Of a stretch of DNA of 64,000 nt, positions 5,251 to 62,947 are shown in pieces. Location of the stretch: assembly GCA_029553505.1 (NCBI GenBank), contig JAKPKY010000167.1, forward strand, positions 3,501-67,500, in the 5' to 3' direction. How positions within the stretch are numbered: position 1 is the stretch's first letter; the number at the start of each line of letters is the position of its first letter. Below the pieces are notes generated by a model, which saw only the letters and a list, made by a program, of their open reading frames with translations, was not told the DNA's origin and ran no database searches. The DNA comes from Planctomycetota bacterium. Its GTDB lineage: Bacteria; Planctomycetota; Phycisphaerae; SM23-33. The position numbers and the translations under genes are program-made.

Positions 5251-7713
5251 ATGATCCTTCTCCTGCCGGCGATTACGACAGTGGAGCTGGCCCAGCCTGT
5301 CTGGCTGCTGGCGGGGTGCGCCGCCGCGCTGCCGCCGATCCTCGCGCTGCGGGCGCGCCGTCAGGGACGCCGCGCCGCGCGATGGTCCGTGGCGCTCCAG
5401 ATGCTGGCAATCCTCGCCGCGGCGGCCGCACTCGCCCAACCACTCGTCCCACTCGACGGGCAAGCGAACCTGCCCGTGCTGATCTTCCGCGACGTGTCGG
5501 TCTCCGCGCGACACCAGCGCGAGCCTCCGCTGCCGGTGCCGCCCGCAATGGTCGCGGAACGATACGATTTCGCCGCGGGCCTGTCTCGCGAAGGCGCTCC
5601 GCCGGATGCAGCGCAGACAAACCTCGCTCCGGCGCTTCGCTTGGCGGCGGGGCGCGCGGGCCGGGCGATCGCAGCCGTGTTCCACACCGACGGGCAGTTC
5701 CAGGACGACTGGTCTTCCGCAGCCGCGGCTCTGGGACAAGCGGGCCTGCCCGTCTTCGTCGTGCCGATGCGTTCGCCCCCGCCCGATTCCCGCGTGCTCG
5801 CGCTGGACGCCGCCCGCGCGCCCGGCGGCGCCGTCGAGCTGACGATCAGCGTGCAGTCGTCGGCCGTCGACCGCCGCACGCTCACCGTCCGCCGGGTGTC
5901 GCCCGCGCCGGCCGTGCTGCTGACGCGCGAGCTCCGCCTGCTGGGCGGAGAGCCCGTCACGCTGACCGTGACCGACGCGGCCGCGCCGTCCGCCCGCGCG
6001 GCCGTCTACCGCGCCGATCTGTCCGCCGGTGACGCCTGGCGGGAGAACGACACGATCTCGGCCGTCATGCTGCCTGTCGCGCGGCGCGCGGCCTTGGTCG
6101 CCCCGCCGGAGACGGTCGCGGCGCTGCGCGGCGCGCTGGGGGCCGGCGCAACGGCGATGAACCCTGCCGCCGCCCCAACAGACGTGCAGGACTGGATGGA
6201 CTACGACGCCGTGGTCCTGATCGACTCCACCGGGCAATGTCTCAATCCGGGCCAGCGCGAAGCCCTCGCCGAGTATGTGCGGGGCGGGGGCGGGCTGGTG
6301 TTTGTCGGCGCGGGCCCGCACGGTTCGCCCGCTGACCGCGACGACCCGCTCAACCGTTGTGCCGCCCTGCTGGCCAACCCCTACGAGCGAAAGGCGCTCA
6401 AGGTGGTCGTCGTGCTGGACGGCTCCGGCTCAATGAGCGATCGCGCCGGCGGACGGCGAAAGTTCGACCTGGCGGCGGAAGCGACAATCTCACTCCGCCG
6501 GCACCTCACACCGCGCGACCGCCTGGCGGTCATTGCCTTTTCCGACCAGGCCCGTCTTGTGTATGACAGCGGCGACGCGCCGCCCGATTTTTCTGTCCTG
6601 CACGAGGCGCTGCGGAGCGTCGAGCCCACCGGGCCGACCCATGTCGTGCCCGCGCTGACCCTGGCGGCAGAGCAGACCGTCCCGGCCGACGCCGACGGGC
6701 TGGTGCTGCTGCTGAGCGATCTGGCGACGCAGGACCGGCAGTTCGACGCCGACGCGCTGGCGGCGGCGCTGCGCCGCGCCAGGCTGGCGCTGGCGGTGGT
6801 GGCCACGGGCGGCGAGGCAAGCGCCGACGCCCCGCTGGCCAGGCTGGCGGAAACAATGAACGCGCCGCTCGTCCGCCGGGCGGACCTGGCGGCGCTGGCG
6901 GGCGTGTTCGCGTGGTTCCTGCGCGACGCGCGCGGTGATGGATTGCTCGCCGGGCCCGTGCGCGTGGAAGCGGTCGGCCTGCCGTTCGGCGCCGACCCTC
7001 GCCGTCTCCCCCCGGCCGGGACGATCCTGCTGTGCGCCGCCCAGCCGCAGGCCGAGGTGCTCGCCCTCGCTGCCGACCAGCCTGTCCTGGCGCAGATGCA
7101 GGCGGGGCTGGGACGGGTCGTCTCGCTGGCGGTCCCGCTGGACCTGCCCGCCAACGCCGCCTGGCGGGATTCCCCCGGCGCTGTCGCCCTGCTTGCCGGC
7201 GCGATGCGCTGGGTGCGCCGCCCAGCCGCCGACGGACGATTCGACGTCTCGCTCGCGCGGCAAGGGCGTGCGCTGCGCGTGGAGGTCGTCGCCCGAGAGT
7301 CCGGCGCGGCGATGAATGCCCTTTCGCTGGTCGCCCGCGCGGCGGCCCTGTCCGGCGGCGAGACGGTGGAGATTCCGCTGCCCCAGGCGTCGCCGGGTCA
7401 GTACGCCGCGACATTTGCCCCGCCGCCGTCCGATGCGGTCGTGGAAATCCTGCACGACGGGCGGGCGGTCTGGCGCGGCGCCTCGGGCGAATCCTGCGGG
7501 TCGGAATTCACGCATCTCGGCGCCGATGAGGTGGCGCTGACCCTCCTAGCCCGGCGCGCCGGCGGGCGCGGGGTCCGAGCGGCCGACCTGCCCGGCGCGC
7601 TGGAGCAATTGCGCCTCCGTCAACTCACACCGGTCTGGCCGGCGCTGCTGGCAGTGGCGCTGGCGCTGATGCTGCTGGAATGGGCAACGGCCAGACTGCT
7701 GCGCGAGGCGTAA
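5251..7713 (+). CDS. BatA-like membrane protein with N-terminal double-TM segment and VWA domain
   Basis: MILLLPAITTVELAQPVWLLAGCAAALPPILALRARR resembles the aerotolerance-type N-terminal double-TM domain. VVVVLDGSGSMSD is a VWA MIDAS-like motif. There is a C-terminal TM (TPVWPALLAVALALMLLEW). I chose the ATG at 5251. Confidence 0.7.
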   Translation: MILLLPAITTVELAQPVWLLAGCAAALPPILALRARRQGRRAARWSVALQMLAILAAAAALAQPLVPLDGQANLPVLIFRDVSVSARHQREPPLPVPPAMVAERYDFAAGLSREGAPPDAAQTNLAPALRLAAGRAGRAIAAVFHTDGQFQDDWSSAAAALGQAGLPVFVVPMRSPPPDSRVLALDAARAPGGAVELTISVQSSAVDRRTLTVRRVSPAPAVLLTRELRLLGGEPVTLTVTDAAAPSARAAVYRADLSAGDAWRENDTISAVMLPVARRAALVAPPETVAALRGALGAGATAMNPAAAPTDVQDWMDYDAVVLIDSTGQCLNPGQREALAEYVRGGGGLVFVGAGPHGSPADRDDPLNRCAALLANPYERKALKVVVVLDGSGSMSDRAGGRRKFDLAAEATISLRRHLTPRDRLAVIAFSDQARLVYDSGDAPPDFSVLHEALRSVEPTGPTHVVPALTLAAEQTVPADADGLVLLLSDLATQDRQFDADALAAALRRARLALAVVATGGEASADAPLARLAETMNAPLVRRADLAALAGVFAWFLRDARGDGLLAGPVRVEAVGLPFGADPRRLPPAGTILLCAAQPQAEVLALAADQPVLAQMQAGLGRVVSLAVPLDLPANAAWRDSPGAVALLAGAMRWVRRPAADGRFDVSLARQGRALRVEVVARESGAAMNALSLVARAAALSGGETVEIPLPQASPGQYAATFAPPPSDAVVEILHDGRAVWRGASGESCGSEFTHLGADEVALTLLARRAGGRGVRAADLPGALEQLRLRQLTPVWPALLAVALALMLLEWATARLLREA

Positions 7714-9571: not shown

Positions 9572-11614
9572 ATGAACCCGGAACCAAACATTTCTCCTTC
9601 CCACGGGCCGCGATGGCACTACCTTCTGACGGCAGGCGTCGCGAGCGTCATCCTGTTCTGGCAGCTTGGTGCGCCCGCCATGGACGATCACGAGTGCAAG
9701 CTCGCCCTGGCGGCCAAGAACATGACCGAGCGGACCGACTGGCTGTACGAGGGCGTGGGGGAGGAATTCCAGGCCTATCCCATCCCGCCGGCGACGGCGT
9801 GGAACTACTGGCTGGTTCCGGTGGAGAATGGTCGGCCCCGGCTGGTCAAGACGCCGCTGCCGTACTGGTCGGCCGCCGGCGTGGCGATCGCCAGCGGCGC
9901 GGGGGTCAACGAATGGACGGCGCGGTTGCCGTCGGCCTGCGCCGCGATGGTCCTCGTGCTGGTGACGCTGGCGCTGGGTCGGCGAATGCTCTCTCCCCGC
10001 GCCGCCCTGCTGGGCGCGCTGATGCTGGCGACGGCCGTGGGCGTGCAGAAGTGGGGACGCAACGCACGGCCTGAGATGCTTTTGTGCACGCTGATGACCT
10101 GCGCGATGGCGGTTTTCTACCTTGCCCTGCGTGCGACGAGCCGCGCCCGGCGGATCGGCGGGATGGTCGCGTTCTGGCTGCTGATGGGGCTGGCGAACCT
10201 CGCCAAGCAGTTCGTGCCGCTGATGCTGGTCTGGCCGCTAGCGGCGTATGTGCTGTGGCGCCACGACGCCCGCTCGCGCGGCGACGATGCGGCCCTGGGC
10301 TCGCTGCGCCGCCTGCTCGTGCTGACGGCCATCGGCCTGGGCGTTCACCTGGCCGTCATGAACCTCACCGCCACCGACTGGTGGCAGGCGCGCCGCCTGC
10401 CGACGGGCAAGGTTGCCTACGGCGTGATGGCTCTGGGCTTCGCCCTTCCGATGCTCTGGTACCTGCTGCGGACCCGCGGGTGGGGCGCGATCGGTCGCCT
10501 GCTGCCCACGGCCATCCCGGGCGCTGCCGTCATGTTCGCGATGTTCGTTCCCTGGCTGTGGTACATGGAAAAACTCTTCGGCGGGTACGCGGGGGGCATC
10601 TTCTCGCACCAGGTCACCGAGCGGGCGGCAGGCATCGGCGACTGGACGGTGGAGGTTCCCTGGTACTACCTGATTCCGCTGGTGACGCTGACGCTGCCCT
10701 GGCTGGGCATGCTCCCCGGGGCGCTGGCGGCACCGCTGATGCGCCGGTTCCGCGAGCGGCGCGAGGCGCTGGCGTACCTGCTGCTGTGGTGCGTGGGGAT
10801 ATTCACGCTGTTCACCGCGGCGGCGGCCAAGCGAGAGCATTACATCCTGCCGATGATTCCGGCGGCGTGCCTGCTGATGGGCTTCATCGCCGAAGACGTG
10901 TTCTGGCGGCACGAGTGGATCCGCCCGGCCCTGACGCGCCTGCTGGGCGCGGCCTACGGGCTGGTGGGCCCGGTGGGCCTGATCGTGACGGGCGTGGCGG
11001 CGGTGGTCTCGCCGGACCGCGCCAAGTGGGTCTACATGATGGTGGTGGCGGCCGTCGCGGCTGTGCCCATGACCGCCGCCGGCGTGCTGTCCCTGCGCCG
11101 CCGGTTCGCGCTGGTGCCGGGGCTGCTGGTCGCGGGCATCACGCTGGTCTACGTGGGGTTCTTCTCCTCCGGCGACCTGTGGGACCCGCGCGACCGCGTG
11201 CGCGATTTCGCCGTCGAGGCGGACCGGCTCTTCCGCGCCGAGGGCGACGGCGCCGTCGCCCTGCACTGGGGCGATCCGCAGGCCAAGACCGCCTTCTACT
11301 TCGGGCGATTGCTCCCCTCGACCCACTGGAAAATCATGCGCCAGGGCGGCGATCCGGACACGCTGCACCGGCGCGTCCTGGACTGGCTGGCCGACTGCCC
11401 CGAACCCGCGCCGTGGATTCTCGGCTATGAGAAGATGCTTAACCGCAAAACCGGAAAGGTGGAGCGCCTGAGCGACGCGGCCGACCTGTGGCGGATCGGC
11501 TACCGTCCCGTACTGCTGATCGAGGGAAAACAGGACAAGCGCTTCACCTTCGCGCTGTACCGCCGGCTGGAACGCCCGGAGGCGGCTTCCCGTCCCGGCG
11601 CGACGGCGCCGTAG
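9572..11614 (+). CDS. GT39/ArnT-like (PMT_2 family) membrane glycosyltransferase
   Basis: Multi-pass membrane protein. The N-terminal third (KTPLPYWSAAGVAI, RLPSACAAMVLVLVTLALGRRML) resembles the ArnT/dolichyl-phosphate-mannose transferase family. The last ~130 aa form a soluble C-terminal domain. Confidence 0.65.
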   Translation: MNPEPNISPSHGPRWHYLLTAGVASVILFWQLGAPAMDDHECKLALAAKNMTERTDWLYEGVGEEFQAYPIPPATAWNYWLVPVENGRPRLVKTPLPYWSAAGVAIASGAGVNEWTARLPSACAAMVLVLVTLALGRRMLSPRAALLGALMLATAVGVQKWGRNARPEMLLCTLMTCAMAVFYLALRATSRARRIGGMVAFWLLMGLANLAKQFVPLMLVWPLAAYVLWRHDARSRGDDAALGSLRRLLVLTAIGLGVHLAVMNLTATDWWQARRLPTGKVAYGVMALGFALPMLWYLLRTRGWGAIGRLLPTAIPGAAVMFAMFVPWLWYMEKLFGGYAGGIFSHQVTERAAGIGDWTVEVPWYYLIPLVTLTLPWLGMLPGALAAPLMRRFRERREALAYLLLWCVGIFTLFTAAAAKREHYILPMIPAACLLMGFIAEDVFWRHEWIRPALTRLLGAAYGLVGPVGLIVTGVAAVVSPDRAKWVYMMVVAAVAAVPMTAAGVLSLRRRFALVPGLLVAGITLVYVGFFSSGDLWDPRDRVRDFAVEADRLFRAEGDGAVALHWGDPQAKTAFYFGRLLPSTHWKIMRQGGDPDTLHRRVLDWLADCPEPAPWILGYEKMLNRKTGKVERLSDAADLWRIGYRPVLLIEGKQDKRFTFALYRRLERPEAASRPGATAP

Positions 11615-14543: not shown

Positions 14544-14625
14544 GCGTTCGCTCCCTATCACCAAAGCAATAGTCTGCAATATCCGCCGTGGCAACGCAAC
14601 CGCTCGGTGGATAAGATTACGCCCC

Positions 14626-15132
14626 ATGAAGATCGGGATCGTCTCCGACTCGCACGGTAAGACACGCCGCCTGCGCGCCGCGCTGGAGATTCTGCGTGCC
14701 CGCGGGGCCGAGGCGATCGTCCACTGCGGCGACCTGTGCTCCCTGCCGTGCGTGCAGGCCCTGGGCGACTGCGGGCTGCCCGTCTACGCCGTCGCGGGGA
14801 ACATGGACCGCCACGTGGCGGAGCTGGCGGCGCAGGCGGCCGAGGCGGGCGTGACGTTCTCCCCCGAAGTCGTCGAGGCGCCGCTGGGCGACGGGCGGTT
14901 CCTCGTCGCCACGCACGGAAACGACCAGGCCGTGCTCGAAGAACTCGTCGCCGGGCAACAGTTTCCCTACGTCTGCCACGGGCACACCCACCGCGCCGCC
15001 GACGATCAGGTCGGCGCGGCGCGCGTCATCTGCCCCGGTGCGTTGCGCCATCCGCGGCATCCCCATCACCCCACCGTCGCCCTGCTGGACACCGCAACCG
15101 ACACGCTCGAATTCCTCGACGTGCCGAGATGA
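14626..15132 (+). CDS. YfcE/MJ0936-family metallophosphoesterase
   Basis: Ordered metallophosphoesterase motifs: MKIGIVSDSHG, VHCGDL, GNMD, CHGHTH. Confidence 0.8.
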   Translation: MKIGIVSDSHGKTRRLRAALEILRARGAEAIVHCGDLCSLPCVQALGDCGLPVYAVAGNMDRHVAELAAQAAEAGVTFSPEVVEAPLGDGRFLVATHGNDQAVLEELVAGQQFPYVCHGHTHRAADDQVGAARVICPGALRHPRHPHHPTVALLDTATDTLEFLDVPR

Positions 15133-15231
15133 CGGCCGCGGCTCTTTCGGCGCCGATACTTCCCACTCGCCGTCCCGCACGCCCCATGAAACCCTTGGTC
15201 GTTGGCGGACGGGTCTGCTAGAATCCCGGCC

Positions 15232-16014
15232 ATGAATGAGGATGCGGACCAACTCGCACGGGCGGCAAGGCAGTTGATCGACACCGACGATCTGTTGGGC
15301 GGCGGCTTTCTTCCCGCAGAGCACCACCCGCTGCCGGAGGTTCAGACGTCCGCGCCGGCGGCAGGCGCAGAAGCCCCGGCCGAGATGACTCCCGCCCAGA
15401 AGGCTGCGATGCTCAAGGCGCTCGACGAGGAGGAAGTTCGCACTTGCACGCTCTGCGGCCTGCACCGTACACGAACGCACACGGTCTTTGGTGAAGGCGA
15501 CCCGTCGGCGGCGCTGGTGTTCGTGGGTGAAGGCCCCGGCGCCGACGAAGACGCGACCGGCCGACCGTTCGTCGGGCGCGCGGGCGAGCTGCTGACGAAG
15601 ATGATCGAGGCGATGGGCCTGACGCGACAGGACGTGTTCATCTGCAACATGGTCAAGTGCCGCCCGCCGGGCAACCGCACGCCCGCGCCCGACGAGATCG
15701 CCGCCTGCTGGAGCTACCTCATCCGCCAGCTCCAGATCATTCGCCCGAAGGTTCTCGTGACGCTGGGCAATCCTTCCACGCAAGGTCTTCTCAACACCCG
15801 CGTGGGAATCACCCGCCTGCGCGGGCAGTGGCAGAAGCTGCCGGAACTCGCGCCGGGCCTGGGCGGCATCGACGTCATGCCCACCTTCCACCCCTCCTAC
15901 GTGCTGCGACAATACACGCCCGACGTCCGCGGAAAGGTCTGGAGCGACCTGCAAGCCGTGATGAAACACCTCGGTCTGGCGCCGGCCGCCCGCAAGGGCG
16001 CAACCGGGCGGTGA
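15232..16014 (+). CDS. uracil-DNA glycosylase, family 4
   Basis: CTLCGL Fe-S cysteines, FVGEGPGADED, PFVGRAGELL, VKCRPPGNRTP, and FHPSY near the C terminus. An alternative TTG start is at 15202. Confidence 0.85.
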   Translation: MNEDADQLARAARQLIDTDDLLGGGFLPAEHHPLPEVQTSAPAAGAEAPAEMTPAQKAAMLKALDEEEVRTCTLCGLHRTRTHTVFGEGDPSAALVFVGEGPGADEDATGRPFVGRAGELLTKMIEAMGLTRQDVFICNMVKCRPPGNRTPAPDEIAACWSYLIRQLQIIRPKVLVTLGNPSTQGLLNTRVGITRLRGQWQKLPELAPGLGGIDVMPTFHPSYVLRQYTPDVRGKVWSDLQAVMKHLGLAPAARKGATGR

Positions 16015-16091
16015 CATACAGTTGACACCCCCTTCCGACCGGCCGAAAATGCCTCCGTTGTCAGGCGACACTTCACGGATCGGATGGGGTC

Positions 16092-26695: not shown

Positions 26696-27691
26696 TCAAG
26701 GTGAGCTTCCTGCTCGTCGACGCCCTTTGCGTTTCCGCAGGCCCACCAATCCGCCGAAGGACAGCAGGACGGCAGTAGCCGGTTCCGGCACAGAGACGGT
26801 GAAATCGACGCCGGTGACGCTTTGAATCCAGCCCGTATAATCCGCCACCGAGGTCAGGCCGCCGATGTCTCCATAGCTCCCATCCGCCGTGCCGTCGTAA
26901 GCGAGAATGAAGGAGTTCACCCCCACCAGGTAGGTTACGCCGTCAATGATCACGAACGCGCCGCCGCCGCTGTCTCCGGAAGCAACCATATACTCATATG
27001 CCAAGGCCGAATCCGCGCTCCAGGGGTACCCGTCATTGCTCGATGAGGGATTGTCGAAATCGAAGAGCAGGATGGAATCGTCCAAGGAGGAGAAGAACGG
27101 ACGGGTGCCTCCCGTGATCTCGATCAGGTTCACCCCGGCGTGCAACACCCCTCCGGACCCTGTCGCTCCCGTCGTGCCCGTGCCGGTTTTACCGTATCCC
27201 GAGAGATAAACCACTTGCCCGACCAGGCTACTCGTCGTGCCGGAATACAGCAGAACCCCGTCGGAAGCCACATTCGAGTCGCTCAGTTGGATCAGGGCGA
27301 TATCGCCCCCGGCAGAGGCATTTCCGGACCAACCGTCATAGACATAGACCGCGGAGGACGTGTAGCTGGTCCCATTGACGGTAAAGGTAAACGTCGTCGA
27401 GGAAGAGGCAACATGTGCTGCCGTCAAAACCCAGCCTTCGCCAAGATAGGTTCCGGAGGCGTATCCGCCGCTCCAGGATATCTTTCCCACGGAGCTGATC
27501 GCGTCCACTCCCGCCAGTGCAGCGTCGTAGTCGGTGTAAGTCTCTCCGGAGACAATCACTCCCGCCGGACAGAGCGACGGCGCTGTCAGAAGCCATTGAA
27601 AGACAACCAACCAGCCGCAACGGGTTCCTCGCCTCACGGAACCACCTCCCTTTCCTCTGCGATTCCTCGCCCGCAACGGAAAATCACGCAT
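26696..27691 (-). CDS. trypsin-like (S1) serine protease with PEP-CTERM sorting tail
   Basis: Catalytic triad contexts WVLTAAHV, GGDIALIQL and GDSGGGAF. C-terminal VPEPATAVLLSFGGLVGLRKRKGRRR. The ATG overlaps the stop of the upstream gene (ATGCGTGA). Confidence 0.8.
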   Translation of the reverse strand: MRDFPLRARNRRGKGGGSVRRGTRCGWLVVFQWLLTAPSLCPAGVIVSGETYTDYDAALAGVDAISSVGKISWSGGYASGTYLGEGWVLTAAHVASSSTTFTFTVNGTSYTSSAVYVYDGWSGNASAGGDIALIQLSDSNVASDGVLLYSGTTSSLVGQVVYLSGYGKTGTGTTGATGSGGVLHAGVNLIEITGGTRPFFSSLDDSILLFDFDNPSSSNDGYPWSADSALAYEYMVASGDSGGGAFVIIDGVTYLVGVNSFILAYDGTADGSYGDIGGLTSVADYTGWIQSVTGVDFTVSVPEPATAVLLSFGGLVGLRKRKGRRRAGSSP

Positions 27692-28235
27692 TCCTACGGG
27701 CGTGCCCGGACAGGCTCGCCCCTCCCATCCGTCGGTTCGGTCCTGTCCGGGATTTGCGGATCAATCCCGCTGCCCCCAACGCAAACAGAATGAGGCTGGC
27801 GGGTTCTGGCACAGGACTCGTGTCGATCCCGAAGCCTTCCCCGAACTGCGGTTCTTCTTCAGCGCCGAAATCGCCGCCCAAACCGGATTGCGCCCCTTCC
27901 TCAATCCCGAACTCAGGCCAAGAATCCAACCACGACCCACTCGAGCCGTAATTCGATTCATCCTCGATGGGAGGCACTGCCGTCAGCAGGGAGGACGGCC
28001 AGACAGCATCCAACGCCCAGCGACGGTTCAGCCGCCAGGAAATCGGATGCAGCTCGACGTAGCCCATGGGATTGCAGAACTGCCCCCCCACCGTGGAATC
28101 CAGAAAGCCGTCATTGTTCCAATCCGACGCCGTGTACCCGGTGCTTTCCAGCAGGTCCTGCGGGCCGATCACGTCGCCCGCTGCCAGGGCCGCCAGGAGC
28201 GCCACAATCGCCAGCATCACAGGCCAATGTTTCAT
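27684..28235 (-). CDS. acidic PEP-CTERM protein, unknown function
   Basis: Signal peptide MKHWPVMLAIVALLAALAAG. VPEPASLILFALGAAGLIRKSR near the C terminus, with an unusual ~20-aa extension after the basic patch. Confidence 0.65.
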   Translation of the reverse strand: MKHWPVMLAIVALLAALAAGDVIGPQDLLESTGYTASDWNNDGFLDSTVGGQFCNPMGYVELHPISWRLNRRWALDAVWPSSLLTAVPPIEDESNYGSSGSWLDSWPEFGIEEGAQSGLGGDFGAEEEPQFGEGFGIDTSPVPEPASLILFALGAAGLIRKSRTGPNRRMGGASLSGHARRNA

Positions 28236-28266
28236 GGGAAATCCTCCTGGGAATCGCGCTCGTCCC

Positions 28267-28953
28267 TTAGCGACAACCGGCTCGCCTCAGACGGCGGCGC
28301 GACAGCATCGCTGCCGCCGACAGACACAGCAATATCGCGGTGGCCGGCTCCGGTACACTGGGCGAACCCTCGTCCCCAAACGTGCCCTCCTCCGGCTCAG
28401 GCGGGATGACGCCGGTCAGGTCCAGCGTGTACGCGAGGTCAAAAGATTCGCCAGCCAGAAGGGCTTGGTCGAATACGACCGAAATGGTGGTGATGTAATA
28501 GCCGTAGTAATCGTACGAAACGTCGATGTCCATCGAGTAGCCCACCCCGTCGATGTCCAGGGACCCATCCACAAGCGTGGCGACGCGAAGCGTGATGGTA
28601 TAGCCGGTGAACGCCTCCGTGGTGTTGTTGACAATGGTCTTGGTCACGTCCATGTAGTTCTCATTTGCGGTCTTCTGGAACCATGTTGAGGTGGTCCCGC
28701 CCGATTCCCAACTCGAGCTGTATTCCTGCCGGCCGCGGAAATACCAGTAGTTCGCGTCGCTGCCGTCCTGTTGGAGATAGGAAGATGTGGTTTCAGAAAA
28801 CCACACCGTACCGGAGTCGTTGTCGAAAGTCGGATCAGGAGTCACCTGAAAATCCATCGACGAAGAAGTGATCATGATCTCCGCTGGAGCGGAATTCCCC
28901 CCCAACAGCAGGCACGCCAACACCACAACCGTTCCCAACTTGAACTTGAGCAT
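28267..28953 (-). CDS. PEP-CTERM protein, unknown function
   Basis: Signal peptide MLKFKLGTVVVLACLLLGG. A Ser/Thr/Tyr-rich beta-looking body. C-terminal VPEPATAILLCLSAAAMLSRRRLRR. Start at ATG 28953. Confidence 0.7.
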   Translation of the reverse strand: MLKFKLGTVVVLACLLLGGNSAPAEIMITSSSMDFQVTPDPTFDNDSGTVWFSETTSSYLQQDGSDANYWYFRGRQEYSSSWESGGTTSTWFQKTANENYMDVTKTIVNNTTEAFTGYTITLRVATLVDGSLDIDGVGYSMDIDVSYDYYGYYITTISVVFDQALLAGESFDLAYTLDLTGVIPPEPEEGTFGDEGSPSVPEPATAILLCLSAAAMLSRRRLRRAGCR

Positions 28954-29052
28954 CTGACGCCTCCATTTCCTCACTTCGCCCGGGCAGAGCCTGTTGAGCC
29001 GCGCCAAAGACGCCTTTGGCACCGTTGCGCCCGGGATGTGATATCGAGCACT

Positions 29053-29070
29053 GAGCAAACAGAGCAAACA
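29053..29070. repeat. perfect tandem 9-mer GAGCAAACA x2 in the island control region
   Basis: GAGCAAACAGAGCAAACA lies about 100 nt upstream of the PEP-CTERM operon ATG (28953, minus strand). Confidence 0.7.
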
Positions 29071-29270
29071 CTACAATCCTGCTTCTATGAGCATATTTAT
29101 GTCGCCGCAGGTCGATCGAATACAACCGCCCATAACGAAAAAGATGTTCGCGGGACACCTTGCGTAAAGAGGGGGATAAATAAGAATTTCAAAAGAATCC
29201 GGTTGTGAAGATGCCGTTTGCGGCAACTTAACAAAAATATGGTTTCTGAGAGGGCGGTGTTTCCCGCCTC

Positions 29271-29289
29271 GGTTCACAATATGGTTCAC
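29271..29289. promoter_or_regulatory. direct heptamer repeat GGTTCAC-N5-GGTTCAC
   Basis: Two identical heptamers spaced 12 bp apart, about 107 nt upstream of the sigma-fusion ATG (29396). Its function is not established. Confidence 0.35.
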
Positions 29290-29395
29290 CTGGATAAAAG
29301 ATATATGGAGATAGAAAATCAGAAACACGAGTTTGAAGGTGCGCGGTAAAATTGTCTTATCAACAAAGAGGCACCGGCTATCAGGGGACATCGGC

Positions 29396-31465
29396 ATGGA
29401 CGACATGGAACTTCTTCGTCGCTACACCGCTTACGGCGACAAGGAGGCCATTTCCTGCCTGGTCCAGAAGTATCAGAAGATGGTTTTCGCGGCGTGCCTG
29501 CGCCGCCTGGGATGTGCGGCCGACGCGGAGGATGCGACGCAGCAGGTTTTCCTGGCCATGATGCGGCACGGCGGGGGGATCCACTCCAACGTGAAGCAAT
29601 GGCTGTATCGCTGCGCCCTCAACGTTTCCGCATCCCTGATTCGCTCCAGGCGGAACCGCATCCGCCGCGAATACGAGAAGGGACGACAGAGTCCCGCTTT
29701 CGGCGGCAACGGCGAAGCGGAGCGGAAAGAGACCCTCACCATTCTCAGGCGGTGTCTGGGCGAATTGGACACCACGGATCGGAAAGTGCTCCTCGAAACC
29801 CATGTCCATGACATGACGCAGCAGGCCATCGCCACGTCGCTGGGCGTGACGCAGCAGGCGGTGGCTAAGCGGATCGGGAAAGCGCTTTATCAGCTTCGTC
29901 GCGAGCTGTCGTCTCGAGGCGTAATCTTCTCCTTGCTCGCTGCCACAGTGCTGCTGGTTAAGCGTGCGGCGGCTGCCGCGATCCCACAAAGCATCAAGGG
30001 CGCCTTGTCCACCGTCCCGTCCGCTTCTCTCGCTACCAGCGGCACCGCCACGGCCGGCACCGCTGGCGTGATGAAGGTCGGCGCAGCGGCAGCACTCGCG
30101 TTGGCCGCCGTAGCGACGTATGAATACGTGGGAAAACGGCAATCCGACCCCCCCGCCAACCCGGCAAAGGTCGTCAGCTTGGCATCCGCCGAAAAACCCC
30201 CCGCTGGAGGCGGAATGGTTGTGCCTGGTTGCTTCCCCTGCAGTTCGCCGTTCGCGCCGCCGATTTTCCCGGCCGGAGGTTCGTTGGCTCAGGAAATGCC
30301 AGCGGCTGGGCAAGCGTCTCGTCCGACTGCAAGAAGAGGAGCGGAGGCGTCCGATCCGCCTCTGGCCAACCGGCAGGCAACGGCCCTTTCGGGCCGGCAG
30401 GATTCATTGGCCGACAGGCAAAACGAAATTGGCCGACAAACCGCACCTTCGCCAACTTCTGACTTCCGCGGGACGTTCCATTCCAGACGGTTCGACGCGT
30501 CGGCGGCGAAAACCTCCGGCTCGGAAGCGGCGCAACGCGATTCAACCGAGAAGTTCCAACCCGAAGCAACGGTGGAGGAAATCGCGAAATCGGCATTGGG
30601 AAACGTTTCCAGGGCATTTCTGTCCTTGGAGGCAATTCCATTCGAAGAGGAAAATCGGCGCGCGGATCGTCGAGTGCTTTTCCCCCCGGACCGACAAATT
30701 GAAAGGGGAGAGGTCACGAAATGGGACACGCCGTATGTCCTGCGGAATCACACGACGACCCCCAATCCTCTTGCGTCAGCTCCCTGTGTTGCATTTGGCG
30801 AGAGCTTTGCGGACGTCGGAGGAAACGGAACGATTTCCCCGAGCTTGCCCCTTTCAAATGCGGCTCCGCCGTCGTTGCACACCAGCGGCATCCTCGGCAC
30901 ACCCAAGGAGACGATTGTCCCAGCCGGCACCCTGTTGGCTGCCGCCGGGACGCTCGATGGACGGCTGATTAACCAGGGGATGTTGGCTACAGACGGCGCC
31001 AACGCAAATCTCCACCTGACCGGACTGGTCAGTGGGGCAGGTTCATACACCGGATGCGTTGTCTTTTCAGGCGGATTCTCGCCGGGCAACAGCCCTGCCG
31101 CCGTGTCTTTAGACTCCGCCATTTTGGACAAAGACAATGTGCTGACGATGGAACTTGGAGGCCTGATCGCCGGGAAAGAATACGATCAACTCCTCATCAA
31201 GGATCTCTTGACGCTGGGCGGACACCTGGAGGTCAAGCTGATCGACGGTTTTGTTCCGCAATGGGGCAACAGCTTCACCCTGTTCGGCGGCAATCTCAGC
31301 GGTCGGTTTGTCGACATGGCCCTGCCCGAGCTGAACGACGGTCTGCGATGGGATACCGGCAGTCTCTACGGCACCGGCAGTTTGCAAGTAGTGCCCGAGC
31401 CGACCTCGCTGAGCTTGCTCACCGCCTGCCTGGCCGCACTGCTCCGCCGATCCCGCCGGCGCTGA
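29396..31465 (+). CDS. ECF sigma-70 family domain fused to hydrophobic segments, a long extracytoplasmic-type region and a PEP-CTERM tail
   Basis: Region 2-like LVQKYQKMVFAACLRRLGCAADAEDATQQVFLAMMRH. Region 4 HTH MTQQAIATSLGVTQQAVAKRIGKALYQLRREL. Hydrophobic segments VIFSLLAATVLLV and VGAAAALALAAVATYEYV. C-terminal VVPEPTSLSLLTACLAALLRRSRRR. A Shine-Dalgarno-like (ribosome-binding) AGGGGA lies 8 nt before ATG 29396. Confidence 0.75.
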   Translation: MDDMELLRRYTAYGDKEAISCLVQKYQKMVFAACLRRLGCAADAEDATQQVFLAMMRHGGGIHSNVKQWLYRCALNVSASLIRSRRNRIRREYEKGRQSPAFGGNGEAERKETLTILRRCLGELDTTDRKVLLETHVHDMTQQAIATSLGVTQQAVAKRIGKALYQLRRELSSRGVIFSLLAATVLLVKRAAAAAIPQSIKGALSTVPSASLATSGTATAGTAGVMKVGAAAALALAAVATYEYVGKRQSDPPANPAKVVSLASAEKPPAGGGMVVPGCFPCSSPFAPPIFPAGGSLAQEMPAAGQASRPTARRGAEASDPPLANRQATALSGRQDSLADRQNEIGRQTAPSPTSDFRGTFHSRRFDASAAKTSGSEAAQRDSTEKFQPEATVEEIAKSALGNVSRAFLSLEAIPFEEENRRADRRVLFPPDRQIERGEVTKWDTPYVLRNHTTTPNPLASAPCVAFGESFADVGGNGTISPSLPLSNAAPPSLHTSGILGTPKETIVPAGTLLAAAGTLDGRLINQGMLATDGANANLHLTGLVSGAGSYTGCVVFSGGFSPGNSPAAVSLDSAILDKDNVLTMELGGLIAGKEYDQLLIKDLLTLGGHLEVKLIDGFVPQWGNSFTLFGGNLSGRFVDMALPELNDGLRWDTGSLYGTGSLQVVPEPTSLSLLTACLAALLRRSRRR

Positions 31466-34826: not shown

Positions 34827-35277
34827 GGATATCCCCTTTGCCTCAGTGACCGAGTATTCGTATCCATCCGGAAAATCCGGCTACACGCAACCACTTAGAA
34901 GCGACGGCGGCTCCCGTTCCGCCACAAGTCATCATATAGCAAAGACTTTGTGCGGGCAAGGCTTTTTTGCGTCGTCGTAACCACACCTGTTGCAGCCGCC
35001 TTGCGGCCAATCCGCTCGCTCGTCCAAAGCCTCAATGCGAACCGGATGTTCCGACCGTCGTTTCCGCCGCGACATGCTTAACCAATTGTATGCATTGCGG
35101 ATATACGTTTTCCCAAAAACTTCAACCCCTTTTGTTGTGTCTGTTGGCCGGGCAGCACGACATCGCGGAAAAACGCGGTTTTCCGGCTAACCGACCGGCC
35201 GGTGGGCTGTCTTGCCTATCGAACGATACAGTGGACAGCTGAAAACCGAAACTCCCAAGCGTCGAAAGGACAAGACC

Positions 35278-35676
35278 ATGAAAACCACACGAACCATTGG
35301 AATGCTGACGATTGCGGCGATTCTTCTGCTGGCCGGAACGGAAGCTTTCGCAAGGGACTCTCATCACGGCGACCGGCACTCGTCCTGGGGCGGCAGAACC
35401 GGCACGACCGTTCTGGTCAACACGAACGCGGGATTCGGCGGCTCCGGCGTCTATTACACCACTGGTCGCAGCGGGTATTACACGCCCTCGACCTACACGA
35501 CGTACTACCACGGCGGTCAGCCGGTCGGATGCACCTGGGGCGGCGGCACGGTCTATCCGCCGGTGTATCGCCATCAGACAAATCGGTTCCAGCATCATGA
35601 TCGACACGATTTCACTCGCGGTTTGTCCCGCGGAAACTCGGACGTGAATGTGTCGGTCATCATCCGCTTCCGCTGA
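35278..35676 (+). CDS. small secreted Gly/Tyr/Thr-rich protein with His-rich ends
   Basis: Signal peptide MKTTRTIGMLTIAAILLLAGTEAFA. Followed by a canonical terminator. No family recognised. Confidence 0.5.
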   Translation: MKTTRTIGMLTIAAILLLAGTEAFARDSHHGDRHSSWGGRTGTTVLVNTNAGFGGSGVYYTTGRSGYYTPSTYTTYYHGGQPVGCTWGGGTVYPPVYRHQTNRFQHHDRHDFTRGLSRGNSDVNVSVIIRFR

Positions 35677-61594: not shown

Positions 61595-62947
61595 ATGGCG
61601 TCGGAAAAGGAATCGCCCATGCAGACAAAGTCCCTGGGAATCATCCTCGTGCTCGGCGCGGCGCTGCGGTTTGGGCTTCTGGCGGCCGGGGCGGTGCACG
61701 GATCGGAGAACCTGTTCACTCCGGACACGGCCGGGTACGTGGAACTGGCGCAGTCGCTGGCGCGCGACGGGACGTTCGAGCGGGACGCCCAGCCGGAGCT
61801 GTTTCGCACGCCGGGGTACCCGATTCTGCTGCTTTTCGGGAGCATTTTCGGTCCTTATTGGGCCTTTTCCGTGGCGGCTGCGCAGGTTTTTCTGGACATT
61901 TTGCTGGTGTATTTGACCTATCTGCTGGCGAGCCTGCTGTGCGGCCGGCGGGCGGCGATCTGGGCGGCGCTGTTCCAGGCGGTCTCGCCGCTGGCGGTGG
62001 CGGCAAGCTGCCGGATTCTCACCGACGCGCCGTTCGCGCTGCTCTGGACGCTGTCGTTACTCCTTGCGGCGCATCACTTTCGCAGCGGGGCGTGGTGGTC
62101 GCTGCTGTCGGCGGCGGCGGTGGCCGGCGCAGCGTGCTACCTGCGCCCGGCGGGAATCCTCTACGCCGGCGCCCTCGGCGTGGTGCTGCTGTTCCGCGCC
62201 CGGCGGTTCGCGCGGGCGGCGGCATTCGCGGCCGTCATCGGCGCGATGCTGGCGCCGTGGGTCATCCGCAATGCCGTGGTAGCCGACTACTGGGGATTCT
62301 CCAACCTGCCCGACGACGTGGCGTTCGGCTACCAGGCCCCGGCTGTGCTGGCGGCGCTGGACGGCACGAACCTGGAGGTCGGCCGGCGCGAGATGGAACA
62401 GCGCCTCGCGCGCGAGCTTCCGCCGGGGCCGATCTCCGCGGGCGAGCTGTCGCGCCGCAAGGGCGATCTGTCGCGCCGCGTGGTGCGCGAGCATCCGTGG
62501 ACGTACCTGAAGCTCCACCTGCGCGGCGACCTGGCCGTGTGGATGCCCGCCGCCACGGACGTCGCGGAGATCGCCGGCCTGACGTCGGGCAATCGCGGCA
62601 CGATGGAGGTGCTGCACGCACAAGGCCCGCTGGCGGCGGCGCGGCACTACTTCGGCGGGCGGACGTGGGCGCTCTGGCTGTGCGCGCCGCTGGTGCTGTT
62701 GGCGGCCGTCAAGCTATTGCTGGCGCTGGCCGGGGCGGTGCGGATCGCCCGCGCGGGCCCGCAGGCGGTGCACTGGGCGATGGCGCTGGCGATCCTCGTC
62801 GCGTCGCTGATTCCCGGCCCGGCGGGGCATCCGCGGTTCCGTGTGCCCGTCGAACCGCTGCTGAGCCTTCTGGCGGGCGTGGCCGTCGCGGCGATGCTCG
62901 ACCGCCGCGCGCGGCGTCAGGCCTGCCCCACCATCACCACCGACTGA
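61595..62947 (+). CDS. GT39/PMT_2-like membrane glycosyltransferase
   Basis: LGAALRFGLL...PDTAGYVELAQSLARDGTFE...FRTPGYPILLLF is a typical N-terminal pattern of ArnT/PMT_2-like proteins. Multi-pass. An alternative start is at 61619 (AAAGGAA 8 nt upstream). Confidence 0.6.
   Translation: MASEKESPMQTKSLGIILVLGAALRFGLLAAGAVHGSENLFTPDTAGYVELAQSLARDGTFERDAQPELFRTPGYPILLLFGSIFGPYWAFSVAAAQVFLDILLVYLTYLLASLLCGRRAAIWAALFQAVSPLAVAASCRILTDAPFALLWTLSLLLAAHHFRSGAWWSLLSAAAVAGAACYLRPAGILYAGALGVVLLFRARRFARAAAFAAVIGAMLAPWVIRNAVVADYWGFSNLPDDVAFGYQAPAVLAALDGTNLEVGRREMEQRLARELPPGPISAGELSRRKGDLSRRVVREHPWTYLKLHLRGDLAVWMPAATDVAEIAGLTSGNRGTMEVLHAQGPLAAARHYFGGRTWALWLCAPLVLLAAVKLLLALAGAVRIARAGPQAVHWAMALAILVASLIPGPAGHPRFRVPVEPLLSLLAGVAVAAMLDRRARRQACPTITTD

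Follow-up and report, generated by a model that had tools for sequence, protein, structure and literature searches.

Extracytoplasmic function (ECF) sigma factors that carry a transmembrane (TM) extension are known, but to our knowledge almost none of them has a defined signal. The DegS-RseA-RseP-sigmaE pathway is a cascade of site-1 and site-2 cleavage that involves a membrane-anchored protease of the trypsin fold. IutY of Pseudomonas putida, a sigma/anti-sigma hybrid of group ECF243, is activated by regulated intramembrane proteolysis through Prc and then RseP (PMC8999054). For SCO4117 (ECF52) and the groups ECF48 and ECF53 of Actinobacteria, which combine a sigma domain with a zinc-finger anti-sigma (ZAS) motif, a TM segment, a Pro-rich region and a carbohydrate-binding domain, proteolytic activation has been proposed (PMC8999054). 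The TM-extended ECF sigma factors of planctomycetes evolve by domain accretion (PMC7671368). In this study, we analysed a stretch of 64,000 nucleotides (the window) from a Planctomycetota bacterium (contig JAKPKY010000167.1) and describe a gene at 29396..31465 on the plus strand. Its product, the sigma-PEP protein, joins an ECF sigma domain, a membrane anchor, a predicted extracytoplasmic region and a PEP-CTERM tail in one polypeptide.

The only regulatory connection of PEP-CTERM/exosortase sorting known to us is the proteobacterial sigma-54 system, and most of the biochemistry of this sorting is still inferred. Canonical PEP-CTERM substrates have a cleavable N-terminal signal peptide in 97% of cases and no other TM segment (Haft 2006, PMC1569441). 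Proteobacterial PEP-CTERM genes use PrsK, PrsR and sigma-54 (PMC1569441), and Rhodopirellula possesses PEP-CTERM proteins and an EpsH homologue without the sigma-54 regulators PrsK, PrsR and PrsT (Haft 2006, PMC1569441). Features that the locus described here has in common with the exosortase (EpsH) system are the C-terminal PEP motif with its short TM helix and cluster of basic residues, the clustering of PEP-CTERM genes, a Ser/Thr/Ala/Pro-rich body of low homology, and long stretches between genes that contain a conserved DNA motif upstream (PMC1569441). In contrast to canonical substrates, the sigma-PEP protein lacks the usual companion trait, a cleavable N-terminal signal peptide; its N-terminus is a cytoplasmic, DNA-binding sigma domain followed by a predicted signal anchor. 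Export of the C-terminal region would depend on this internal signal anchor, residues 228-242.

With IutY the sigma-PEP protein shares an N-terminal ECF sigma domain, one TM segment and a periplasmic C-terminal part in a single polypeptide, together with a presumed release by sequential proteolysis (PMC8999054). Unlike IutY, which has a FecR-type anti-sigma/periplasmic domain and a TonB-dependent receptor as partner, it has neither an anti-sigma domain nor a FecR domain. Its predicted periplasmic part is a disordered spacer, followed by a second membrane helix with the PEP-CTERM signal, and its associated protease belongs to the S1 type and has a PEP-CTERM tail as well. The succession of sigma domain, TM segment, Pro-rich extracytoplasmic spacer and beta-rich, binding-type module is that of SCO4117, ECF48 and ECF53, whereas the zinc-finger anti-sigma motif is lacking, the phylum is another one and the C-terminal PEP-CTERM anchor is unique to the clade. 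Because the anti-sigma domains that define the IutY and SCO4117 types were not found, the label of a sigma/anti-sigma hybrid is unsupported for the sigma-PEP protein. The closest sequence relatives are TM-extended ECF sigma factors of planctomycetes and Verrucomicrobia with TonB_C, WD40, CarboxypepD_reg or DUF1559 extensions, which share the sigma domain, an RRGV..S..LAA.L motif after sigma region 4, a basic Gly/Ala loop and a single TM segment. They differ in the absence of the PEP tail, which defines a separate sigma-domain clade.

The preliminary description of the window had read all these parts in one uninterrupted open reading frame (ORF), and this reading stands. In the ORF listing, the longest form of the gene starts at TTG 29333 and an ATG is found at 29396. 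Since the aligned orthologues all begin with MDDLELL or MEDMELL, ATG 29396 is the real start and the product comprises 689 amino acids (aa), with the stop codon at 31463-31465. Sigma-70 region 2 (residues 22-87, 29459..29656) was matched in the Pfam scan by PF04542 with E 1.3e-10 and 41.3 bits (gathering cutoff, GA, 24). Region 4 (residues 116-168, 29741..29899) was matched by PF04545 (E 2e-7) and, at residues 116-167, by PF08281 (E 8.9e-9, 35.3 bits, GA 25.7), and the NCBIfam model TIGR02937 (sigma70-ECF) covered residues 18-171 with 69.7 bits (cutoff 42.9). The presence of both regions, first suggested by inspection, is thus confirmed by PF04542, PF08281 and TIGR02937, all above their thresholds; sigma-70 regions 1 and 3 gave no matches in the Pfam scan of the 689-aa protein. 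In an AlphaFold2 model built from a 50-sequence alignment, the sigma domain (residues 1-175) has a predicted local distance difference test (pLDDT) score >90. The best Foldseek matches of the N-terminal part are solved ECF sigma structures including AlgU, SigW and SigK (E 1e-8 to 1e-6), with E. coli sigmaE in tenth place. The protein is an ECF (group 4) sigma-70 factor. With respect to curated ECF subfamilies, every NCBIfam subfamily or equivalog match was far under its cutoff, TIGR02989 (a Rhodopirellula/Verrucomicrobium sigma family) reaching 48.4 bits versus a cutoff of 124.55.

The last 25 residues of the protein, VVPEPTSLSLLTACLAALLRRSRRR (residues 665-689, 31388..31462), form a textbook PEP motif, helix and basic cluster. 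The ORF ends in VVPEP-TSLSLLTACLAALL-RRSRRR, that is, in a Pro-Glu-Pro motif followed by a hydrophobic helix and a cluster of basic residues. AlphaFold2 places the terminal helix at residues 669-686. In the alignment of the 42 clade members, P667, E668 and P669 are each conserved to at least 90%; PF07589 matches six of the 42 at E <=0.001, and the orthologue P0003 has a weak precomputed match to this family. Because it is conserved across the clade, the tail is predicted to be functional rather than accidental. Three further genes encoding PEP-CTERM paralogues are located in the neighbouring 2.7 kb.

Independent gene calling in a JGI assembly gave the identical protein of 689 aa (P0001), and full-length orthologues (P0002, P0003 and P0004) show 47-61% identity. 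A family profile was searched against 1.84 billion cluster representatives and the best 150 were tested for the tail by a regular expression; about 37 of these combine an N-terminal sigma domain with a C-terminal [VP]PEP-helix-Arg tail. Orthologous fusions were thereby found in about 40 distinct protein clusters at 50% identity from Planctomycetota metagenomes, and the close relatives stem from Planctomycetaceae, Pirellulales and other metagenome-assembled genomes of Planctomycetota. In a neighbour-joining tree calculated from the sigma domains only of 181 extended sigma factors, all PEP-tailed proteins fall into one sigma-domain clade plus a small sister pair (P0113/P0115). Outside the clade, the tail is found in none of about 135 other sigma-TM-extension proteins, which bear the extensions named above and others. 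The tail test passed over seven proteins within the clade: variant tails occur in three (GEP in P0218, PEV in P0233, a longer basic tail in P0207), two are fragments (P0134 with 177 aa and P0103 with 269 aa) and two (P0193 and P0108) have no recognisable tail. Almost nothing is conserved between the TM segment and the tail in the 42-member alignment. Across about 40 sequence clusters, this comparison shows the tail to be co-inherited with the sigma domain. Database annotation of the sigma-PEP proteins is limited to "sigma-70 family RNA polymerase sigma factor", and full-text literature searches retrieved no published description of a sigma-PEP-CTERM fusion. As far as searched, the sigma-PEP proteins constitute an undescribed, conserved planctomycete family.

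Between the sigma domain and the tail, the two hydrophobic stretches seen earlier are indeed present, at residues 175-189 (GVIFSLLAATVLLVK, 29918..29962) and 228-242 (VGAAAALALAAVATY, 30077..30121). They enclose a basic, Gly/Ala/Ser/Thr-rich loop (residues 190-227, 29963..30076). Stretch 1 (RGVIFSLLAATVLLVKR) corresponds in the alignment to RRGVxxSxAALAAAL, a motif that follows sigma region 4 in all wider relatives. In the sigma-TM-TonB_C relatives, the C-terminal domain of which must be periplasmic, this motif is too polar to span the membrane; the counterpart of stretch 2 in them is their one TM segment, which is clearly hydrophobic. AlphaFold2 predicts a helix at residues 178-195 with pLDDT 60-76. 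Stretch 1 is probably cytoplasmic or membrane-peripheral and not membrane-spanning; since it is uniformly hydrophobic in the closest subclade, it may be embedded in the membrane without spanning it. Residue K227, directly before stretch 2, is invariant. In 17 family members taken together, we counted 50 K/R versus 2 D/E in the loop between the stretches, 34 K/R versus 54 D/E in the 25 residues past stretch 2 and 58 K/R versus 1 D/E in the last eight residues. Read with the positive-inside rule, these charges assign loop and tail to the cytoplasm and the middle of the protein to the outside. The middle modules encountered in the clade, namely beta-helix, dockerin repeats and trypsin domain, are all of extracytoplasmic types. 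We consider it likely that the sigma domain lies inside, that stretch 2 is an N-in/C-out signal anchor, that a loop of about 420 aa is periplasmic and that the PEP-CTERM helix leads back to the cytoplasm. The preliminary description had raised the problem that two spanning stretches would leave the C-terminal region in the cytoplasm; charge bias and the homology of both stretches resolve it toward an outside-facing C-terminal region. A conserved (A/V)x(A/T)-T-Y-E-(C) motif (residues 240-244, 30113-30127) is located at the predicted periplasmic end of stretch 2. It is confined to an inner subclade (P0001-P0004, P0097-P0102 and P0109) and absent from non-PEP relatives, and it could be a protease or signal-peptidase site.

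The predicted periplasmic part starts with a disordered linker rich in Ala, Pro, Ser and Arg (residues 243-490, 30122..30865), with pLDDT <50 in a model where disorder spans residues 203-490. Neither Pfam nor NCBIfam gave a match in the linker or in residues 176-480. The low-complexity character of this region had been recognised before; the length of about 300 aa then given has to be corrected to about 250. In the clade, linkers measure 230-550 residues with 40-62% Pro/Ala/Ser/Thr/Gly and vary in both length and sequence. An alternative-frame ORF of 282 aa (30120-30968, plus strand, frame +1 of the sigma ORF) spans the whole linker of the window gene; this ORF shows no sign of coding and is probably a by-product of GC-rich sequence under low constraint.

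The linker is followed by a beta-helix module of about 175 aa (residues 491-664, 30866..31387), of a type common before PEP-CTERM tails. Residues 493-667 were modelled as an all-beta domain with pLDDT >90, and its Foldseek match is the beta-helical passenger of an autotransporter, Ssp (8e7f, E 1.3e-3). Many of its 44 homologues are annotated as PEP-CTERM, PATR or "T5SS/PEP-CTERM-associated repeat", and homologues occur in proteins annotated with PATR or TIGR04393 (P0019, P0083, P0090 and P0093); PF12951 (PATR) and TIGR04393 themselves gave no match in residues 440-689 at E up to 10. The beta-rich region of the preliminary description is therefore real, and structure prediction makes it a beta-helix, but it is not general: the SPGxSP beta-helix module is present in 13 of 37 clade members, about one third of the family. 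The relative P0005 (479 aa) was considered as a natural sigma-only form and rejected, as its beta-helix runs on in another frame. At its locus in the long-read contig L003 (11409-12239), the beta-helix lies in a different frame that ends in a poly-C run encoding PPPPPPPP, which indicates a pseudogene or a long-read homopolymer error. A trypsin gene upstream in the same contig also looks split, into 104 aa and 282 aa.

All four detectable PEP-CTERM tails of the window fall in four adjacent genes, 26696-31465, forming a cassette of 4.8 kb. Besides the sigma gene it contains three genes on the minus strand. Gene A (28267..28953), divergent from the sigma gene, encodes a secreted PEP-CTERM protein of about 228 aa (PF07589 21.1 bits, above GA), and gene B (27684..28235) a small secreted PEP-CTERM protein of 183 aa (27 bits, above GA). 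Gene C (26696..27691) encodes a trypsin-like (S1) serine protease (Pfam Trypsin, E 6e-13) with the catalytic motifs TAAHV, DIAL and GDSGG and a PEP-CTERM tail scoring 19.8 bits, just under the GA of 20.7. Orthologues of gene A (50-60% identity) and gene B (38-47% identity) occupy the same positions beside P0003 (locus L001) and P0004 (locus L002). The flanking genes differ completely among the three loci, so that genes A and B and the sigma gene behave as a cassette.

The connection between the sigma factor and the protease recurs in the clade. An S1 protease with a PEP-CTERM tail is adjacent to the sigma gene in the window, in L003 (divergent), in L004-L006 (immediately downstream) and in L057 (convergent). 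The protease neighbours of P0007 and P0113 are 39% identical to gene C, the value that holds for the L004-L006 and L057 copies (L057 with E 3e-54). In six of the 42 clade members (P0127, P0128, P0150, P0159, P0207 and P0233), the protease domain is fused in-frame between the linker and the PEP-CTERM tail. Gene C shares 50% identity over 263 residues (E 3e-77) with the domain fused in P0128. Because gene C is homologous to a domain fused inside the sigma protein, the connection is, judged from homology, a link of the Rosetta-stone type. The likeness to the DegS-RseA-RseP-sigmaE pathway, in which a membrane-anchored S1 protease is likewise genetically linked to a membrane-held ECF sigma factor, is one of analogy only. 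The gene C protease differs from DegS in being of the PF00089 type, with a PEP-CTERM anchor and no PDZ domain, and the proposed substrate would be the sigma protein itself, no separate anti-sigma factor taking the place of RseA.

The intergenic region between gene A and the sigma gene contains a conserved block, GCGGTTGTATTC-N12-GC.AC.TA (29098..29129, minus strand), shared by the window, L001 and L002. At all three loci it occurs as one copy at a constant distance of about 165 nt upstream of gene A. The GCGGTTGTATTC block is a candidate for the promoter or operator of the divergent PEP-CTERM operon. It is present once in the window at <=2 mismatches, with two other matches at chance level, and a metagenome scan for its 19 specified bases returned only a twin of the window, L048, and chance matches and gave no sign of further members of a regulon. 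L048, a contig of 2464 bp (ENA ERZ795030), matches the window exactly over 39 nt of the intergenic block region, and its gene A translation agrees with that of the window at either end, so that an ENA metagenome has yielded a second, independent assembly of the source organism. The gene A leader of about 165 nt (window 28954-29130, minus strand; L001 3767-3940; L002 5943-6125) is itself conserved at the DNA level, with a mean column identity of 68%, whereas the encoded proteins are only 50-60% identical. A U-rich tract of this leader could pair with the GAGGA ribosome-binding region. RNAalifold gave a positive covariation term for the three leaders, the only sequences in this alignment, and Rfam had no match in the intergenic region.

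We propose that the sigma-PEP protein, a member of a Planctomycetota-specific clade, is an ECF sigma factor of the one-component, membrane-tethered kind that would be released by periplasmic proteolysis; as a whole, we regard this model as evenly poised between right and wrong. The protein would be inserted as a two-helix hairpin with the long flexible periplasmic loop described above, and tethering at both ends would hold the sigma factor off RNA polymerase and promoters. In a second step, the periplasmic part would be cut or trimmed by the S1 protease, by exosortase or by both. The S1 protease might act as a DegS-like site-1 enzyme, and an exosortase cut at the PEP motif might create a free C-terminus for tail-specific trimming, comparable to that of IutY by Prc (PMC8999054). 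The shortened periplasmic stub would then become a substrate for an RseP-type site-2 protease cleaving within stretch 2. Finally, the freed sigma domain would transcribe the divergent PEP-CTERM operon and probably also the sigma gene itself. A more specific, exosortase-gated version of this sequence of events, in which the cut at the PEP motif opens the linker to degradation by S1 or tail-specific proteases and site-2 release follows, is put forward tentatively and is in our view rather doubtful. The sigma-PEP protein would in that case serve as a surrogate substrate of exosortase.

Several points weigh against release by proteolysis as proposed. None of the anti-sigma domains zf-HC2, RskA and FecR was found in the 42 clade members, only about 50 residues separate sigma region 4 from the TM segment, and residues 176-242 contain no Cys. 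The self-contained sigma/anti-sigma factor that the preliminary description had envisaged is thus not borne out, and with no anti-sigma domain, tethering alone would have to silence the sigma factor. The PEP-CTERM motif of that description is present, but its scores remain just under the curated cutoffs, with 17.4-19.1 bits versus a GA of 20.7 for PF07589 and 15.5 bits versus 16 for TIGR02595. Neither the Kyte-Doolittle scale nor a simple sum on the Hessa biological scale discriminated the three short helices, so that the topology rests on charge bias and homology. The GCGGTTGTATTC block is unlike the canonical ECF promoter GGAAC/CGT and was not found upstream of other genes. No protease is within reach of the sigma-PEP gene in L001, L002, L046, L054 and L056, and the S1 protease could simply be cargo or part of the regulon and not an activator. 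Exosortase was found neither in the fetched loci nor, in agreement with the preliminary description, among the scanned ORFs of the window; the scan took in the largest multi-TM ORFs (those of 322, 229, 453 and 313 aa stood outside it), which proved to be two PMT_2-type enzymes and one MMPL protein. Likewise, no RseP homologue was detected in the window or the fetched loci, where the multi-TM ORFs were scanned in part. Exosortase genes need not be linked to the genes of their substrates (Haft 2006, PMC1569441).

Stretch 2 might, instead of anchoring the protein, be a cleavable internal signal peptide, cut between AVA and TYE. Signal peptidase would then separate the PEP-CTERM cargo from the sigma factor, and signal-peptide peptidase or RseP, a protease known to degrade remnant signal peptides, would free the latter, release being coupled stoichiometrically to cargo export and not to exosortase or the S1 protease. 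Stretch 2 is short and Ala-rich, with the invariant Lys before and the (A/V)x(A/T)-TYE(C) motif after it, and the C-terminal part of the protein is homologous to stand-alone PEP-CTERM proteins. Yet the TYE motif is limited to the inner subclade, and relatives with stretch 2 at the same position, which bear TonB_C or WD40 domains, are taken to be anchored in the membrane; we regard an internal signal peptide as unlikely.

We also give little credence to a sigma factor that is never released, being active while tethered or bearing a tail that purely localises the protein or stabilises the TM hairpin. The PEP-CTERM helix would co-localise the protein with exosortase or with the site of cargo export, and control would be exerted by transcription or by conformational change, as in membrane-bound regulators of the ToxR/CadC type. 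The lack of an anti-sigma domain, the loci without an S1 protease and the many planctomycete ECF sigma factors that have very diverse TM extensions and no known proteases are all in keeping with such a factor. On the other hand, a sigma factor must assemble with the RNA polymerase core, IutY, the only characterised TM-extended ECF sigma factor, needs proteolytic release (PMC8999054), and both the recurrent adjacency of the protease and its fusion would be left unexplained.

The extension might further have arisen by a fortuitous fusion, in which a duplicated unit of sigma regions 2 and 4, with or without the TM segment, landed before a PEP-CTERM gene and the tail is evolutionary baggage; such an origin has been proposed for the ECF extensions of planctomycetes at large. 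Planctomycete ECF extensions are of multiple unrelated origins (Pinto and da Fonseca 2020, PMC7671368), and the linker has a weak coding signal and low conservation. This explanation appears improbable given that the tail has been kept across about 40 clusters at 50% identity while the region from TM segment to tail was replaced (beta-helix, trypsin plus dockerin, low-complexity), that it tracks the sigma-domain phylogeny and that an in-frame open linker of 230-550 codons has been maintained. The sigma-PEP extension has been kept with its sigma domain throughout the clade, which argues that one planctomycete ECF extension at least is no fortuitous fusion. Finally, an assembly or frameshift artefact joining two genes, which the preliminary description had considered, or two spanning stretches with a cytoplasmic C-terminal region and a meaningless tail can be set aside with near certainty. 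Composition alone cannot exclude an indel, because codon-position GC gives a weak signal in the window gene's linker, where frame +1 stays open from residue 239 to 524; one relative (P0005) is split by a frameshift. Comparative evidence does exclude it: the same 689-aa product was obtained in the independent JGI assembly, the architecture recurs in dozens of independent assemblies, and the split in L003 lies in a long-read contig and ends in a poly-C run. The charge bias contradicts a two-span N-terminal hairpin.

Several features of the wider neighbourhood deserve mention. The third-position GC content (GC3) of the cassette genes is 0.69-0.74, versus about 0.73-0.95 (mostly >0.8) in nearly all other genes of the window. 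Other ORFs with low GC3 are few (e.g. 35212-35676 with 0.69 and 14617-16071 with 0.73), and the intergenic region 29000-29400 has about 47% GC. The cassette is flanked by a heparinase II/III-like gene and, according to the translated sequence, by ribH-nusB-ftsY. The deviant GC3 and the entirely different neighbours in L001 and L002 suggest that the cassette is a mobile or recently acquired unit. A surface protein with Ig-like repeats is the product of the divergent upstream gene at the loci of P0097 and P0007 (L054 2-844, L055 1-549, L004 1-1560, L006 1-1495). Big_13 matches were obtained in the L006 copy of the P0007 locus, and the other copies show similar repeats such as TVDGVDYAAVNNG. As the Ig-like gene replaces genes A and B there, the divergent partner varies, yet in these loci its product is once more predicted to be secreted or at the surface. 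No more than a few kb from the sigma gene, the P0006 and P0100 loci encode an AraC-family regulator (Cupin_6 plus HTH_18) and a calpain-type Peptidase_C2 protein with or without a PPC domain; L004 likewise has an AraC-family gene (5421-5960) after its trypsin gene, and the P0100 contig carries a second extended sigma factor of 681 aa. The two PMT_2-type (GT39/GT83-like) multi-span glycosyltransferases of the window are encoded at 9572-11614 and 61595-62947. Enzymes of this type glycosylate periplasmic or secreted Ser/Thr-rich proteins, or lipids; the two might conceivably be connected with the PEP-CTERM proteins, which are rich in Ser, Thr and Pro.

The sigma-PEP clade may couple gene expression to the sorting or proteolysis of surface proteins. 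If release by periplasmic proteolysis is true, the expression of surface cargo would be linked to the condition of the machinery for sorting and proteolysis. If the exosortase-gated version holds, transcription of PEP-CTERM cargo genes would report and track the sorting machinery's activity or capacity; the sigma-PEP protein would then be a planctomycete counterpart of the PrsK/PrsR/sigma-54 system and its activation the first regulatory output assigned to an exosortase. A conserved clade whose sigma factor bears its own sorting signal and is genetically coupled, by adjacency or fusion, to a PEP-CTERM trypsin-like protease offers a handle both on the control of surface-protein genes in planctomycetes and on what exosortase processing does to a substrate, for which a transcriptional read-out would be available.

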